A stretch of DNA of 50,998 bases from Candidatus Eiseniibacteriota bacterium (GTDB lineage: Bacteria > Eisenbacteria > RBG-16-71-46 > DASYSL01), in assembly GCA_031431875.1 (NCBI GenBank), contig JANPEF010000121.1:1-50998 (forward strand), read 5' to 3'. The notes under the pieces are model-generated. The model searched no databases and was not told where the DNA came from. It was given only the letters and a program-made list of their open reading frames with translations. How positions within the stretch are numbered: the first letter of the stretch is position 1; the number at the start of each line of letters is the position of its first letter. The position numbers were made by a program, and so were the translations under genes. This document shows positions 39,478 through 46,081 of the stretch, piece by piece.

Positions 39478-40011
39478 ATGCAGCTCATTCTCTTCCGCCA
39501 TGGCCCGGCGGGTCGCCCTGACCCTTCCCGCTGGCCCGATGACAGCGCGCGGCCGCTCACGCCGCGCGGCGAGGAGAAGACGCGTGCCGCCGCCAAGGGG
39601 CTGGCCCGCGCGTTGCCCGCCGCTGCCGCGGTGTGGACGAGCCCGCTCGTTCGTGCGGCCCGCACGGCGGAAATCCTCGCCCGGGAACTCGACTCCCGAG
39701 GGCCGAGGACGGTCGCCGCGCTCGCCTCGGGTGGATCCGAACGCGCGCTGCTCGAGTTGCTCGCCGCCACCGTCGCCGACGACGCCGGGGCGACGATTGT
39801 CCTCGTCGGCCACGAACCGGAGCTCGGCCGGCTCGCCGGCTCACTGCTGGTCGATCCCGCGCGTGCGCTGCCGCTCAAGAAGGCCGGCGCCTGCGCACTT
39901 TCATTCGACGGGGCGCCGGGCAAGAAGCTCGGCGACCTCGAGTGGTTCCTCTCGCCGCGCCTGCTGCGCGCGCTCGGCGCCCGCACGCGCGCCGCTCACG
40001 GAGCATCATGA
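39478..40011 (+). CDS. sixA: SixA-like phosphohistidine phosphatase
   Basis: LILFRHG, RPLTPRG, TSPLVRAARTAEI, LVGHEP. Confidence 0.88.
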   Translation: MQLILFRHGPAGRPDPSRWPDDSARPLTPRGEEKTRAAAKGLARALPAAAAVWTSPLVRAARTAEILARELDSRGPRTVAALASGGSERALLELLAATVADDAGATIVLVGHEPELGRLAGSLLVDPARALPLKKAGACALSFDGAPGKKLGDLEWFLSPRLLRALGARTRAAHGAS

Positions 40012-40733
40012 ATCACGTTCCCGCCGCCCACTCCGCCTACGGCGAGGTCTCGCCGCCCTGGCCGGGTCGGCTGTTCATCGTCGAGGGAATCGACGGATCC
40101 GGCAAGAGCACGCAGCTCACCCTGCTGTCGCAATGGCTGCAGGGCGAGGGCTATCCCGTCGTGTTCAGCGAGTGGAACAGCTCGCCCATCGTGCGCAATA
40201 CGACGCGCCGCGGCAAGAAGCGCCAGATCCTCACGCCGCTCACGTTCAGCCTGATCCACGCCACTGACTTCCATGATCGCGTCGAGCGCGAGATCGTTCC
40301 GTTTCTCAAGGCCGGTGCGATCGTGCTGGCCGATCGTTACGTCTTCACCGCGTTCGCGCGCGACTTCGCCCGCGGCGTCGACGCGGACTGGGTGCGCGGG
40401 CTCTACCGCCTCGCGGTCGTCCCCACGATGGCGTTCTACTTCCGCACGCCCCTCGAGGTGGCGCTGAAGCGCATTCTCAGCGGCCGCCCGAAGCTCAAGT
40501 GGTACGAGGCGGGCATGGACCTCGGCCTGCACGCCGAACCGCAAGCCAGCTACCGCATCTTCCAGGCGCGCATCCTCGACGAATACGAGCGTCTGGTGAA
40601 GGAGTACCCGCTGACCGTGATGGACGCGACGCGCGCCATCGAAACCCAGCAGAAGCTCCTGCGCAAGCACATCGCGCCGCATCTTGTCGGCCTGCGGCGC
40701 ACGGATGCCATGCACGCGAAGGTGACGTCATGA
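40008..40733 (+). CDS. Thymidylate-kinase-fold protein 1, intact P-loop (putative catalytic polyP kinase subunit)
   Basis: FIVEGIDGSGKST, LADRY, WYEAGMDL; ATGA overlap with sixA. Confidence 0.85.
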   Translation: MNHVPAAHSAYGEVSPPWPGRLFIVEGIDGSGKSTQLTLLSQWLQGEGYPVVFSEWNSSPIVRNTTRRGKKRQILTPLTFSLIHATDFHDRVEREIVPFLKAGAIVLADRYVFTAFARDFARGVDADWVRGLYRLAVVPTMAFYFRTPLEVALKRILSGRPKLKWYEAGMDLGLHAEPQASYRIFQARILDEYERLVKEYPLTVMDATRAIETQQKLLRKHIAPHLVGLRRTDAMHAKVTS

Positions 40734-41452
40734 GGCGCTTCGAGACCTACGGCAAGAACATTCCGGGCGTCGATCCGGGAGAACTGACCGGCTGGCTGAT
40801 CGTGATCGAGGGGACCGACGGTGTGGGCCGCACGACGCACGTCAACCACCTGCGCGGCGTGCTCGAGCGCGAAGGTTATGCGGTCGCCGAGACGGGCCTC
40901 ACTCGCTCGGACCTCGCGGCAGCCGGCATCCGCCGCGCCAAGGAGGGCAACACCCTCGGCTCGAACGCGTACAACCTATTCTACGCCACAGACTTCGCCG
41001 ATCGCCTCGAGCGCCAGATCCTGCCGGCGCTGCGCGCCGGATTCGTCATGCTGACCGATCGCTACACGTACTCGCTGCTGGCCCGGGCCATCGTGCGCGG
41101 CGCCGACCCGGACTGGATCAAGGACGTGTACTCGTTCTCGCTCAAGCCCGACGCGGTCTACTACCTGCGCATCGACGTCCCCGAGCTCGTGCCGCGCGTG
41201 CTGGCACAGGGCGGATTCGACTACTGGGAATCGGGCATGGACCTGCCGATGGGCACCGACCTGTTCGACTCGTTCGTCAACTACCAGACGAGGGTCATCG
41301 ATGAGCTCGATCGACTGGCCCTCGAGTATGGCTTCGAGACACTGGATGCGACCCGCCCGATCGACGAAACCGCCGATGACCTTTCAGCCCGCGTCTTGCG
41401 ATTGCTGGCCCGGCATTCGCATGAATCCGAGGACGCGATCCCGCAGCCCTAG
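40730..41452 (+). CDS. Thymidylate-kinase-fold protein 2, degenerate P-loop (putative regulatory subunit)
   Basis: IVIEGTDGVGRTT (K to R), LTDRY, YWESGMDL; ATGA overlap with protein 1. Confidence 0.85.
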   Translation: MRRFETYGKNIPGVDPGELTGWLIVIEGTDGVGRTTHVNHLRGVLEREGYAVAETGLTRSDLAAAGIRRAKEGNTLGSNAYNLFYATDFADRLERQILPALRAGFVMLTDRYTYSLLARAIVRGADPDWIKDVYSFSLKPDAVYYLRIDVPELVPRVLAQGGFDYWESGMDLPMGTDLFDSFVNYQTRVIDELDRLALEYGFETLDATRPIDETADDLSARVLRLLARHSHESEDAIPQP

Positions 41453-41510
41453 GCCCCGGCCGGACGCCTGGCGCGGTCGTGAGCAGTGTTCAGCCGCCGG
41501 AGAGTCGCCC

Positions 41511-42533
41511 ATGGACACCGCCGCACTCGCCCAACGCCTCGCCGCCGACCTGGAGCGCCGCGTGGCGTCGCTCGACGCGGCGGCACGGCGCACACGTCAG
41601 GGCACCGATCACCCCGATCCCGAAGCCATCCACGACCTGCGGGTCGCCACGCGACGGCTCAGTGAGGCGCTCGCGACCTGGCGCGCCCTGCTCGCCGCCC
41701 GGCCCGCGGCCGCCGCGCGCCGCCGCCTGGGCGACCTGCGTCGACGGCTCGGCACCGTGCGCGACGACGAGATCCAGCAGGAATACCTGGCAGCCCGTCG
41801 CGAGGATGCCGACCCTTCGCTGTGTCTCGCGCTCGAGCCCGTGCTGCGCCGCAGCGAACGCCGGGTCGCGCGCGGGCGGAAGGCGGCCGCACGACGGGCC
41901 TCTGCCGGCCGGATCGAATCGATTCGACGGCGTGTCCTCGCCGCGGCGAGCGGCCTCGTGAGACGCGTCGTGGAGCGACCGGACCCGCGACAGGCCGCGA
42001 TCGCTCGCGCCGGACATCGGCGCGAGGAGGCCCGCCGCGCGGTCGCGCTCGCCGCCGGTCCGGAAGTCGGCGACGCGCTGCTGCACGCGGCGCGGATCGC
42101 GATCAAGAAGGATCGTTACGCCTCCGAGGCCCTGGCCGCGGTCGACCCTTCGAGCGCACCGAGCCTGGTGGATCCACGGCGGATCGCGGCGTTGCGCCAC
42201 GTCCAGCGGAGCCTCGGGACAGTGCACGACCGCGCGGAGGTGCTGGCTTCGCTCGACCGAACGGTGCGGCGGTGGCAGGCGGACGGGTGGACCGAGCGGG
42301 CGCAGGCGCTTTCCCCGCTCCTCCGGCGCGTCCGCGAGGAGCGCCGGGTGGCGTTGCTGCACGCTCGACGCTCGATCGCAGCGCTCGCGGCGGCGGCGGC
42401 GGCGGCGACAACGGCGGCGGTTCCAACTCCACTCGTACCCGACGACCCAGCAGGCGAGCCAGCAGGCGGGTCCGCTGCCGCGCCGCCCACACTTCGAGTC
42501 GCGCGTCCTCCCGGGCGGCTGCGCGAATCGTGA
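41511..42533 (+). CDS. CHAD domain (polyphosphate-binding) protein
   Basis: DPEAIHDLRVATRRL, LGTVRDDEI, LHAARIAIKKDRYASE, QRSLGTVHD. Confidence 0.88.
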   Translation: MDTAALAQRLAADLERRVASLDAAARRTRQGTDHPDPEAIHDLRVATRRLSEALATWRALLAARPAAAARRRLGDLRRRLGTVRDDEIQQEYLAARREDADPSLCLALEPVLRRSERRVARGRKAAARRASAGRIESIRRRVLAAASGLVRRVVERPDPRQAAIARAGHRREEARRAVALAAGPEVGDALLHAARIAIKKDRYASEALAAVDPSSAPSLVDPRRIAALRHVQRSLGTVHDRAEVLASLDRTVRRWQADGWTERAQALSPLLRRVREERRVALLHARRSIAALAAAAAAATTAAVPTPLVPDDPAGEPAGGSAAAPPTLRVARPPGRLRES

Positions 42534-43950
42534 CCGCGTCACCCCCGCGGGTCACCCGCACGCCGAGCACGAGTTGGTACTGGCTGCGATCGAGCGCCTC
42601 GGCGATGCGCAGGAGCGAGGCCAGCCAGCGCACCGCGCGGCGCGCGTCCGCCGGGAGCGCGGCGAAGGCCCGGTCGCGCTTGCGCGGCCGCGCCTTGCCG
42701 TGATACCTCGCGACCGTCGCGACCACCTCCACCTCATCGGCCGACAGCCCGCGCAGGTTCCCGTTGCGGATGATGTAGTACGAGTGCTCGGTGTGCTCGT
42801 CGTGGCCGATCACCGAGCCGATGTCATGCAGCAGGCCCCCGTACTGGAGGAGACGCCGCGCCTCGTCATCGAGCTCGTGCTCGTGGCGCAGTTCGTCGAA
42901 CAATCCGAGCGCGAGTGCGGTGACGTGGCGGGCGTGCGGCTCGTCCCCGCGGAACCGAGCCAACAGGCGCAGGACACTCCGCAGCTTCAGGTCCTCGACC
43001 GGGTCGAGTCGCTCGATCTCCCGCGCGTGCCGGGCGATGTAATCCGCCAGGAGTCCTTCGCGCACGCCGAAGTCCGACACCGTGAGCGTATCGAGATCGA
43101 ACGCGCGGAGGGCCTCGACCAGCACGATCGCCCCGGGGATCAGGATCTCGGCACGCGCCGCGTCGAGCCCGGGAAGGCGCAGCCGCTCGGACAGGGCCAT
43201 CGCCTCGAGCGCTCGCGTGGCGCGCTCGAGGGCCCTCCGTTCGAGCTCGCGACCGTTGACGTGGCGCAGCGGGGACCCGCCCTCGAGATGACGCAATACG
43301 TGGGCGAGCGCGTGGATCGAGCCCGAAGAACCGTAGGCACGGATCGGGCCGAGGGCCGCAATCGGCTCGATCACCGCCTTGATCGTGCGTCGCACGTGAC
43401 GCGACAGCCGGGCCAGCGCAGCCGGATCGGGGGGATCCCCGACCGGCTTGAGTTCGCTCAGGCGCAAGGCACCCAGCGGGAGCGAGACGACCTTGAGCAG
43501 CTTCTCGCGCGTGCAGACGACGAGTTGGAGGGAGCCGCCCCCGATGTCGAGCAACAGCACGGGCCTCTCGGGCAGCTCGAGCGCGCTCCGCACGCCGAGC
43601 CAGATGAGTCGCCCCTCCTCGCGCGCGGGAATGATCCGCGGCGTGATCCCGGCGACCTGTCGCGCCCTGCGCACGAACTCGCCGCCGTTCTTCGCCTCGC
43701 GCACGGCCGCCGTCGCCGTGCAGATGACACGCTCGGCGCCCAGGCTTCGCGCCAGCGCGACGAACCGTGCGAGTGACTCCACTGTCCGGGCGATGGCGTC
43801 GGCGCGCAGCCGACCACCGAGGAACGAGCCGCGTCCCACCTGGACCACCTCGCGCTCCCGGTCGAGCACGTCGAAGCTGCCGTGCGCACCCGCCTCGGCC
43901 ACGACGACGTGAATCGAGTTCGTACCGATGTCGATGGCTGCGATGCGCAC
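42103..43950 (-). CDS. ppx: Ppx/GppA exopolyphosphatase with HD domain and a low-complexity read-through tail
   Basis: IAAIDIGTNS, TATAAVREAKNG, LDIGGGS, GVREG, LLHDIG, LLRIAEALD; conserved part ends near 42421, stop at 42103. Confidence 0.92.
   Translation of the reverse strand: MRIAAIDIGTNSIHVVVAEAGAHGSFDVLDREREVVQVGRGSFLGGRLRADAIARTVESLARFVALARSLGAERVICTATAAVREAKNGGEFVRRARQVAGITPRIIPAREEGRLIWLGVRSALELPERPVLLLDIGGGSLQLVVCTREKLLKVVSLPLGALRLSELKPVGDPPDPAALARLSRHVRRTIKAVIEPIAALGPIRAYGSSGSIHALAHVLRHLEGGSPLRHVNGRELERRALERATRALEAMALSERLRLPGLDAARAEILIPGAIVLVEALRAFDLDTLTVSDFGVREGLLADYIARHAREIERLDPVEDLKLRSVLRLLARFRGDEPHARHVTALALGLFDELRHEHELDDEARRLLQYGGLLHDIGSVIGHDEHTEHSYYIIRNGNLRGLSADEVEVVATVARYHGKARPRKRDRAFAALPADARRAVRWLASLLRIAEALDRSQYQLVLGVRVTRGGDAVTIRAAAREDARLEVWAARQRTRLLARLLGRRVRVELEPPPLSPPPPPPRALRSSVERAATPPGAPRGRAGGAGKAPAPARSTRPPATAAPFGRAKPAPPRGRALSRGSAGRGATPRSAVDPPGSVRSKGRPRPGPRRRNDPS
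42387..42407 (+). repeat. (GCG)7 trinucleotide repeat inside the CHAD/ppx overlap
   Basis: gcg x7, read as poly-Ala in CHAD and poly-Pro in Ppx. Confidence 0.8.
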
Positions 43951-43953
43951 CGG

Positions 43954-44529
43954 TCAGCCCCCCAGCAGCTTCATGACGTAGCCCGCCGAGAGCGGGATGC
44001 GGAAGTTGTCGTCAAGCGGAATGGGCAACAACTCGAACAGCGCGGCGGTGAACGCGCCCGCCGCGGCGAGCCAGGCGGGCATGCCGACGACGCCCCAGGC
44101 GAATGCGAACGAGACGAGGAAGCAGGCAAGGCTGCCCTCGATCGTCTTGCCGAGGATGCGCTGGCGCCCGATGGTCTTCCCCACCAGCGCCGCCGCGGTA
44201 TCGCCGAGCACGAGCGCACCGAGCGCGGCCACCGCCACCTCCTTGCTGAACAGCTCGATGGTCAGCACCGAGGCGATCAGCAGGTAGGTCGAGCCGAGCA
44301 GCTGCTTCTGCTCGTGGCGGCGCACCAGGTCGCGGAAGAAGCGTGAGATCAGCAGCCGCACGCGCGCGTCGTGCAGGCGCATCAGCTCGAACACCAGCGA
44401 GACCAGCACCGCGGCGAGCAACCCCCGCACGATGATGCGCTTGGGCAGCACGTCGTAGAGGTAGATGAGCGGAATGAGGATGAACGAGAGATGAATGGCC
44501 TTGCGACGGATCTCGGGCAACAGGCTCAT
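43954..44529 (-). CDS. SEC59/DGK1/VTE5-family CTP-dependent polyprenol/diacylglycerol kinase-like membrane protein
   Basis: RRKAIHL, GDTAAALVGK, KTIEGSLACF, DDNFRIP. Confidence 0.85.
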   Translation of the reverse strand: MSLLPEIRRKAIHLSFILIPLIYLYDVLPKRIIVRGLLAAVLVSLVFELMRLHDARVRLLISRFFRDLVRRHEQKQLLGSTYLLIASVLTIELFSKEVAVAALGALVLGDTAAALVGKTIGRQRILGKTIEGSLACFLVSFAFAWGVVGMPAWLAAAGAFTAALFELLPIPLDDNFRIPLSAGYVMKLLGG

Positions 44530-44539
44530 CCGCTCTCCC

Positions 44540-46081
44540 TCACTCCCACTCGATGGTCGCGGGCGGCTTGCTCGAGTTGTCGTAGACCACGCGGTTGACA
44601 CCGCGCACCTCGTTCACGATCCGTCCCGCCGCGCGGGCGAGGAACGCGTGCGGCAGGCGCGCCCAATCGGCGGTCATGCCGTCCTGGCTGGTGACCGCGC
44701 GCAGCGCGATCACCCGGTCGTAGGTGCGGGCATCGCCCATGACCCCCACCGTGCGGACGGGAAGCAGGACGGCGAACGCCTGCCACACCTTGCCGTACAG
44801 GCCGCTGTCGCGCAACGCATCGATGAACACTGCGTCGGCCTCGCGAAGGATTTTGAGGTCCGGCTCGTTCACCGGTCCCAGGATCCGCACGGCCAGGCCC
44901 GGCCCGGGGAACGGGTGCCGGTCGATCAGGGCCGCGGGCAACCCGAGGGCGCGACCCAGGGCGCGCACCTCGTCCTTGAACAGGGTGCGCACCGGCTCGA
45001 CCAGCTTCATCTTCATGCGCGCCGGAAGGCCGCCCACGTTGTGGTGGCTCTTGATCACGTGCGCGCCCTTGCCGATCGAGGCGCTCTCGATCACGTCCGG
45101 GTAGAGCGTCCCCTGGGCGAGGAACTCGACCTTGCCCACCTTCTTCGCCGCGGCCTCGAATACGCGGATGAATTCGCGGCCGATGATCTTCCGCTTCTTC
45201 TCCGGGTCCTCGACGCCGGCCAGCGCCTTGAGGAAGCGCGCCCGCGCGTCGAGGCGCACGATCTCCACGCCGAGTGGCGCGAGCGCGGCCATCACCTCGT
45301 CGCCCTCGTTGCGGCGCAGGAGCCCGTGGTCGACGAACAGGCAGGTGAGCCGATCCCCGATCGCGCGCGCCAGCAGCGCGGCGACGACGCTCGAGTCGAC
45401 GCCGCCCGACAGGCCGCAGACGACCTTGCCGCGCGGCCCGACCTGGCGGCGCACGGCGACCACCTGCTCGGCGAGAAAGTCCTCGATCTTCCAGTCGGGC
45501 GTGAGCCGGGCGACCTTGAACAGGAAGTTGTGCAGCAGGTTCTTCCCCACCGGCGTGTGCACGACCTCGGGGTGGAACTGGACGAAGTGCCACGGGCGCG
45601 TCTCGTGGCGCGCCGCGGCGAGCGCGCAGTTGACCGTGTGGCCGGTGACGACGAAGCCTTCGGGGAGCGTCGCCACCTCGTCGCCGTGGCTCATCCATGC
45701 CTTGAACGTCCTGGGCAGGCCCCGGGTGAGCGCGTCGGCGCGATCAAGCCGGAAGGTGACCTGCCCGTACTCGCCGCGACGCGCCTTGCGCAGAGTCGCC
45801 CCGAGGGCGAAGAGGGAAACCTGCATCCCGTAGCAGATGCCGAGCAGCGGCACCTTCGGGTCGAGCGAGCGTGGGTCGAAGCGGTACGCGTCGGCGGCGG
45901 TGGCGCTCTGCGGCGAGCCCGAGAGGATGATCGCGGCGGGCTTGAGGTGCGCGATCTCGCGACGCGGCAGGTCGTACGGGCGGACCTCGCAGTAGATGCC
46001 GGCCTCGCGCACGCGGCGGGCGATGAGCTGCGTGTACTGCGACCCGAAATCGAGCACGAGCACGAACTGCCGTCGCTTCAA
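44540..46081 (-). CDS. guaA: GMP synthase (glutamine-hydrolysing)
   Basis: LDFGSQYTQLI, GICYGMQ, QFHPEV, SGGVDS, IKSHHNVGGLP, KPPATIEWE. Confidence 0.98.
   Translation of the reverse strand: MKRRQFVLVLDFGSQYTQLIARRVREAGIYCEVRPYDLPRREIAHLKPAAIILSGSPQSATAADAYRFDPRSLDPKVPLLGICYGMQVSLFALGATLRKARRGEYGQVTFRLDRADALTRGLPRTFKAWMSHGDEVATLPEGFVVTGHTVNCALAAARHETRPWHFVQFHPEVVHTPVGKNLLHNFLFKVARLTPDWKIEDFLAEQVVAVRRQVGPRGKVVCGLSGGVDSSVVAALLARAIGDRLTCLFVDHGLLRRNEGDEVMAALAPLGVEIVRLDARARFLKALAGVEDPEKKRKIIGREFIRVFEAAAKKVGKVEFLAQGTLYPDVIESASIGKGAHVIKSHHNVGGLPARMKMKLVEPVRTLFKDEVRALGRALGLPAALIDRHPFPGPGLAVRILGPVNEPDLKILREADAVFIDALRDSGLYGKVWQAFAVLLPVRTVGVMGDARTYDRVIALRAVTSQDGMTADWARLPHAFLARAAGRIVNEVRGVNRVVYDNSSKPPATIEWE

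Follow-up and report, generated by a model that had tools for sequence, protein, structure and literature searches.

The window analysed here, a 50,998-nt contig (JANPEF010000121.1) of a bacterium grouping with Candidatus Eisenbacteria, carries at positions 39478–43950 what we confidently take to be a PPK3 polyphosphate (polyP) module, in which two tandem kinases of the thymidylate kinase (Tmk) fold are accompanied by genes for a SixA-like phosphatase, a CHAD protein and an exopolyphosphatase. PPK3 has been described in Sulfolobus acidocaldarius (SaPPK3; Hofmann et al., J Biol Chem 2026, PMC12995831; preprint 10.1101/2024.08.28.610084), where Saci_2019 (cPPK3) is a polyP kinase that catalyses reversible transfer between ATP and polyP, and Saci_2020 (rPPK3), inactive alone, boosts the activity ca. 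6- to 10-fold at a 1:1 ratio, the two forming a 2+2 tetramer. dTMP is phosphorylated there by a separate enzyme, Saci_0893, and by neither PPK3 subunit. The Sulfolobus cluster named in an earlier, sequence-only reading of the window is real: saci_2017–2021 encode SixA, Ppx, cPPK3, rPPK3 and CHAD (PMC12995831), and the same archaeal gene cluster is depicted in PMC10892726. Since PPK3 of bacteria had already been predicted in PMC12995831, the idea is not new, and the locus is an added bacterial example of a published family. Added here are the DRX arginine retained in bacterial second subunits and a counted avoidance of PPK1. The name PPK3 has also been applied in biocatalysis papers to an unrelated PPK2-type enzyme.

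The genes of the cluster are the following.

39478..40011, plus strand: sixA-like histidine phosphatase, 177 aa (His_Phos_1, E 1e-10; TIGR00249, E 1e-18, the score of 67 bits lying under the 74.5 cut-off)
40008..40733, plus strand: kinase-1, predicted PPK3 catalytic subunit (cPPK3), 241 aa (PDB match, profile scores, tree)
40730..41452, plus strand: kinase-2, predicted partner subunit of PPK3 (orthologous to rPPK3), 240 aa (motifs, tree, profiles, fold model)
41511..42533, plus strand: CHAD-domain polyP-binding protein with a low-complexity tail, 340 aa (PF05235, E 8.9e-23)
42103..43950, minus strand: Ppx/GppA exopolyphosphatase, 615 aa, with domain III/HD and a tail that is basic and of low complexity (PF02541, E 4e-58; PF21447, E 8e-25; TIGR03706, E 7e-75, under cut-off)

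The coordinates agree with the arrangement noted earlier from the letters of the window. The sixA, kinase-1 and kinase-2 genes are joined by ATGA overlaps (sixA stop and kinase-1 start at 40008–40011, kinase-1 stop and kinase-2 start at 40730–40733), CHAD starts 58 bp past the kinase-2 stop, and ppx converges on CHAD, the 3′ ends overlapping by 431 nt (42103–42533).

Both kinases match PF02223 (Thymidylate_kin) and share 34% identity (70/203). Their Walker A strings, GIDGSGKST and GTDGVGRTT, and a shared E-x-GMDL motif had been quoted correctly: kinase-1 has EGIDGSGKST (K33) and the lid WYEAGMDL, and kinase-2 has EGTDGVGRTT, in which Arg34 replaces the lysine, and the lid YWESGMDL. Kinase-1 also contains EWNSS, KKR (70–72), H84, DRY (109–111; R110) and the YEAGMD lid; in kinase-2, DRY (110–112, as TDRY) and the lid R156 are kept, and KKR is reduced to KEG. 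Kinase-2, with its DRY and lid arginine intact, is less degenerate than the earlier designation of the two as an active and a degenerate kinase implied.

The dTMP-kinase equivalog TIGR00041 gives 79 bits for kinase-1 and 69 bits for kinase-2, both below the 83.25 cut-off, which alone is a weak discriminator, as archaeal cPPK3 genes pass it. Where nine of 11 canonical Tmks have the EP motif, kinase-1 has SEWNSS and kinase-2 TGLTRS, and the Tmk motif S-x-x-AYQ is absent from both. Neither matched PF03976 (PPK2) at E 0.001 or the PPK1 family (TIGR03705). The best PDB match of kinase-1 is S. tokodaii st1543 (2plr/5h70; E 8.6e-56, with the next Tmk at 5.9e-16), a cPPK3 homologue according to PMC12995831. 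The same protein leads the search with kinase-2 (E 2.2e-32 vs. 6e-11 for the next match) and is the top fold match of the predicted kinase-2 model, which adopts the Tmk fold with a pLDDT score of 89. For comparison, 11 archaeal loci, all consisting of ppx followed by two kinases, were fetched with an st1543-derived motif. Kinase-1 scores 204 bits with the archaeal first-gene profile, 100 with the second-gene profile and 82 with Tmk; reciprocally, archaeal first genes (11/11) favour the bacterial kinase-1 profile and second genes (11/11) the kinase-2 profile.

A quick tree of 119 rows was built with 11 canonical Tmks from the same genomes and two more distant kinases (L149, L150); S. acidocaldarius was represented by the 11 archaeal loci, whose genes are in the same order, PPK2 was not among the rows, and one row (L109_K2) is, by an extraction error, a second copy of kinase-1 from a genome in which kinase-2 is split. 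As can be seen from this tree, all PPK3-type rows form one branch (Shimodaira–Hasegawa-like approximate likelihood ratio test, SH-aLRT, 99; stem 1.72) separate from the 11 canonical Tmks, with kinase-1 clustering with archaeal first genes (support 86) and kinase-2 with archaeal second genes (94). One contig assigned to Thermoplasmata (L095) has a Sulfolobales-type PPK3 pair nested in Sulfolobales rows, due to either transfer or a binning error. The phylogeny proposed by the sequence-only reading as a check groups both kinases with PPK3 subunits, and its claim that they are a PPK3-type pair and not ordinary Tmks is supported by the best structure match, the tree, the motifs and the neighbours. 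By their sequences, kinase-1 and kinase-2 are placed within the dTMPK superfamily in its PPK3 clade, outside canonical Tmk.

One could suppose instead that the two are duplicated nucleoside-monophosphate (NMP) kinases, acting on dTMP or another NMP with ATP as the donor, which lie among polyP genes by chance. PF02223 matches both, databases call members of the family “dTMP kinase” (the mis-annotation that had been foreseen), the PDB title of st1543 says the same, and in many Acidobacteriota the pair has no polyP neighbours. Against this, the Sulfolobus orthologues gave no dTDP and the separate Saci_0893 did (PMC12995831), the EP and S-x-x-AYQ motifs are missing, a canonical tmk is present on another contig (C61), and the avoidance of PPK1 described below would be unexplained. 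We consider this explanation highly improbable.

The host genome is 98.45% complete. Its canonical tmk (G000:C61:79018-79605) reaches 165.5 bits on TIGR00041 (cut-off 83.25); two weak PF02223 matches lie on contigs C106 and C152. PPK1 was found in the host genome neither by family search nor by tblastn, and PPK1 and PPK2 searches place neither gene within the window, as had been stated. Of the further expectations for the genome, those of a separate tmk and of no PPK1 hold, and that of no PPK2 had to be rejected: contig C50 carries one PPK2, which passes TIGR03709 and fits PPK2_rel_1 / ADP-polyphosphate phosphotransferase models best.

The window shares with SaPPK3 two tandem Tmk-fold paralogues with the catalytic one first, the same five gene families, a separate canonical tmk, the lack of PPK1 and a second gene with arginine in Walker A. 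Kinase-1 is 38–43% identical to archaeal first genes and has EWNSS, KKx, HATDF and DRY in common with them. Unlike the Sulfolobus case, the host is bacterial and GC-rich and also has PPK2, and its ppx is convergent rather than upstream and longer (HD domain, basic tail); unlike the 11 archaeal second genes, which have DGY and W/Y at position 119, kinase-2 has DRY and R119. The predicted bacterial PPK3s of PMC12995831 are of the same family and two-gene layout as the window; Data S1 of that paper, among the rows searched, has them in Chloracidobacterium (10/10 rows) and Ktedonobacteria (2/3 rows). With canonical dTMP kinases (TIGR00041, PF02223) the window kinases have in common their fold, a P-loop and a DRX motif, but they score below the cut-off, have no EP or AYQ and form a separate branch. 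PPK2 (PF03976) and PPK1 (TIGR03705) resemble PPK3 in reaction type and in neighbourhood (sixA, ppx, CHAD).

The pair recurs as a unit in relatives, so that its arrangement is not due to chance. We tallied the best 80 of at least 561 confirmed loci from a scan with kinase-2, all at least 55% identical to it; the six peptide patterns used in the scan did not extend over DRX, R119, R123 or the lid R156. Among these 80, the nearest named loci are from Candidatus Eisenbacteria. In 80/80, kinase-1 is matched immediately upstream and in the same orientation (its frame is broken in three, and a contig end truncates one), and a 4-base kinase-1/kinase-2 overlap is present in ca. 50 by a start-codon heuristic. 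The flanks of 34 loci contain sixA, CHAD or ppx. A wider set comprised 150 library representatives, some of them fragments. It includes a clean kinase-1/kinase-2 fusion cluster named from Alicyclobacillus, with four of five members full-length, which supports a heteromer. The statement in PMC12995831 that the PPK3 clade is mainly bacterial, with both subunits in all predicted operons but one, belongs here as well.

Several other arrangements were seen. In some relatives (L111, L116, L013, L028 and L068) ppk2 and the PPK3 pair are no more than a few kb apart. In Acidobacteriota loci such as L030, L044, L053, L067 and L083 all genes around the pair are unrelated to it, and kinase-2, at ca. 285 aa, is extended at its C-terminus by ca. 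50 aa. Representatives P0020, P0027, P0043 and P0148 are fusions of 620–700 aa in which a kinase-1-like domain is joined to a second, decayed Tmk-like domain and to Ppx domain III/HD; P0043 is named from Ignavibacteria. Such a fusion would be a one-chain PPK3 with a piece of Ppx. Kinase-1-like domains also occur in P0143, P0147, P0154 and P0141, long proteins in which they are combined with SPX, inorganic pyrophosphatase, MFS or DUF2252/APH domains. The SPX and pyrophosphatase domains point to phosphate metabolism; these proteins are possibly eukaryotic and may be misassemblies.

The inactivity of rPPK3 has been attributed to loss of the DRX arginine (PMC12995831). In the bacterial second gene this arginine is kept in 81/81 rows (80 loci and the window), and DGY is found in 11/11 archaeal second genes. 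Because of this split, and since Saci_2020 and STK_15420 are the only rPPK3s that the supplementary legend of that paper lists for the alignment, losing the DRX arginine would seem to be particular to the archaeal branch and not general in the family. The replacement of the Walker A lysine by arginine, in contrast, is found in second genes of both groups (81/81 bacterial, 10/11 archaeal), as are the loss of both EWNSS and the KKR patch and the change of H84 to Y; the main text of PMC12995831, as available, never uses the term “Walker A”. K70-K71-R72 of kinase-1 matches KKK of 11/11 archaeal first genes and corresponds to KEG in kinase-2. The net charge of segment 60–75 is +5.1 in bacterial kinase-1 and +1.7 in kinase-2; in the archaeal pair (+1.1 and +2.0) it does not separate the subunits. 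A wider tally by alignment columns covered 115 kinase-2-class segments, with 44 of 55 profile rows bacterial. Of the 114 covered at DRX, 111 have its arginine, and the Walker A lysine column holds Arg in 78, Cys in seven and His, Lys and Pro in one each of the 88 covered; in wider kinase-1 segments it is Lys in 32/34. Judging from these alignments, the partner subunit would be marked throughout the family by the Walker A Lys-to-Arg change together with the lost basic patch, and bacterial kinase-2 may still bind nucleotide.

How far kinase-2 departs from a bare scaffold can be argued both ways. It could bind ADP/ATP as a sensor of energy charge, or be a weak or different phosphotransferase, which would be a sub-case of the PPK3 explanation and not an alternative to it. 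R34, D110-R111-Y112, R119, R123 and R156 are invariant in 81/81 bacterial rows, the wider set agrees for the DRX arginine (111/114) and the Walker arginine (78/88), and two clusters with double Tmk domains (P0042, P0088) have the first P-loop decayed and GRST/DRY intact in the second domain. Walker A Lys-to-Arg substitutions, as in RecA-family mutants, often spare binding and block transfer. On the other hand, the position holds Cys in 7/88, the second P-loop of the Alicyclobacillus fusion is decayed, the arginines may be conserved for the sake of the interface or fold, and the representatives were gathered with a profile that is 44/55 bacterial and hence biased to DRY. In addition, the archaeal partner activates without the DRX arginine, so that this residue is dispensable for the shared role (PMC12995831). 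We regard such a kinase-2 as possible though not probable, and take the same tentative view of nucleotide binding or sensing by the second subunit.

The distribution of the three kinase families bears on what PPK3 does in the cell. Among 151 genomes of the window's phylum, which are drafts, so that misses are possible, the PPK3 pair was found in 51, PPK1 in 41 and PPK2 in 83. PPK3 and PPK1 never occur together (0/51 PPK3 genomes; 13.8 expected if independent). Kin are not independent, and 29 of the 41 PPK1 genomes are of one family; still, the PPK3/PPK1 split recurs within families f1, f2, f4 (four PPK3, three PPK1, no overlap) and f10. In G150, a genome of the window's family with no PPK3, and in G037, sixA, ppx and ppk1 lie together, not at the chromosomal position of the window. 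A second sample, 151 draft genomes of another phylum (Acidobacteriota by locus title), has the PPK3 pair in 25, PPK1 in 80 and both in three (13.2 expected). The tallies include unpublished genomes (G015 in the PPK3 and PPK2 counts; G305, G183 and G208 in the second sample); dropping these four shifts each count by at most 2, and the pattern stays. As a general rule, “PPK3 never co-occurs with PPK1” is rejected, given the Acidobacteriota genomes with both (3/25) and the Ktedonobacteria rows scored 1/1/1 in Data S1 of PMC12995831. That paper describes the absence of PPK1 and PPK2 from most PPK3 carriers, a majority trait, and proposes exchange in situ with PPK1 from gene neighbourhoods. Within the 31,788/47,545 genomes of Data S1 a single Eisenbacteria genome is scored 0/0/0 and no carrier from this group is listed; one third of the sampled genomes of the phylum (51/151) carry the pair.

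PPK2 accompanies PPK3 in 39/51 genomes and PPK1 in 36/41, and is found in only 8/59 genomes with neither. It could therefore be argued that PPK3 in vivo is only a polyP-consuming ATP buffer, polyP being made by PPK2 or another enzyme; PPK2 could do so in the 39 genomes, and the Sulfolobus enzyme favours ATP formation ca. 50-fold in vitro (PMC12995831). Yet in 12/51 PPK3 genomes no PPK2 was found either, and the host PPK2 is best on PPK2_rel_1 / ADP-polyphosphate phosphotransferase models. Furthermore, PPK2 being equally common beside PPK1, it tracks the presence of a synthase and does not replace one. A mere buffer appears unlikely to us. The avoidance of PPK1 by PPK3 suggests that PPK3 replaces PPK1 as the maker of polyP, i.e., that it is a functional stand-in for PPK1 and not for PPK2. 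The count supports the exchange with PPK1 proposed in PMC12995831 and would point to synthesis in vivo, and we lean moderately towards a synthetic role.

The module would work as follows, with chemistry very probably the same as that of Sulfolobus PPK3, by analogy with which it is drawn. Kinase-1, the presumed catalytic subunit, would bind ATP/ADP in the normal Tmk donor site, with the dTMP site rebuilt for polyP, and the terminal phosphate would move reversibly between ATP and polyP, as in its orthologue Saci_2019. Kinase-2, presumably made 1:1 with kinase-1 by translational coupling (the gene overlap is seen in the window), would assemble with it, probably into a 2+2 tetramer, and raise its activity. 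It is probably inactive or nearly so because Walker A has Arg for Lys and the KKR patch is lost, and not on account of the DRX arginine, which is retained. As expected from their families, CHAD would bind the polyP granule and Ppx would trim it. PPK3 most likely stands in the place of PPK1, beside a separate PPK2, and would make polyP at high ATP/ADP and return ATP at low. A bolder version, in which whole lineages of bacteria have exchanged PPK1 for PPK3 as their in vivo polyP synthase, kinase-2 is the energy-charge sensor that sets the direction, and the Sulfolobales subunit is a further-decayed offshoot, is speculative and in our view rather unlikely as a whole.

A number of observations weigh against a PPK3 module with a mainly synthetic role. 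The ca. 50-fold preference for ATP formation argues directly against such a role, and three of the 25 Acidobacteriota genomes with PPK3 have PPK1 as well. The presence of PPK2 in the host contrasts with most PPK3 genomes of PMC12995831. As for family membership, st1543 was deposited as a dTMP kinase (PDB titles), the two subunit branches of the tree are under 95 support, and kinase-2 is ambiguous between archaeal profiles (134 bits with first genes vs. 127 with second). Nor does kinase-2 show the rPPK3 feature of PMC12995831, replacement of the DRX arginine. Within flanks of up to 5 kb, 43 of the 80 loci, mostly from Acidobacteriota, have no match to sixA, CHAD, ppx, ppk1 or ppk2, and five have a PPK1 match. 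Biochemistry of a bacterial PPK3 was not found in the searched literature, i.e., in titles and starts of abstracts, with few subscription papers covered.

Some features of the region stand apart from these questions. The ppx tail (ca. 100 aa) is basic and rich in Pro, Ala and Arg, and relatives also have basic tails, which differ in length; such a tail could be a polyP-binding element or a product of read-through in GC-rich DNA. The CHAD/ppx overlap was rejected as a conserved feature, since it is 425 nt in a same-genus genome and ranges from −83 to 277 nt in nine others. Between 39200 and 44700 no promoter-like sites were found (0.2 expected) and one terminator-like site was, inside kinase-1 (1.5 expected), so there is no usable signal. 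A membrane-protein open reading frame on the minus strand (43954–44601), with no Pfam match, sits between guaA and ppx and is 96% identical in the same-genus genome G085; it resembles a protein of the dolichol/phytol kinase or CDP-diglyceride synthase type.

Surveys based on ppk1 would score genomes such as this one as having no polyP synthase. With the PPK3 pair in 51/151 genomes of this phylum and 25/151 of Acidobacteriota, the family is more widespread than “a few bacteria” suggests. The published cause of the partner's inactivity, the lost DRX arginine, does not reach the bacterial members, and a pair of the mesophile type would be a useful test of the job of the second subunit and of polyP making in vivo.

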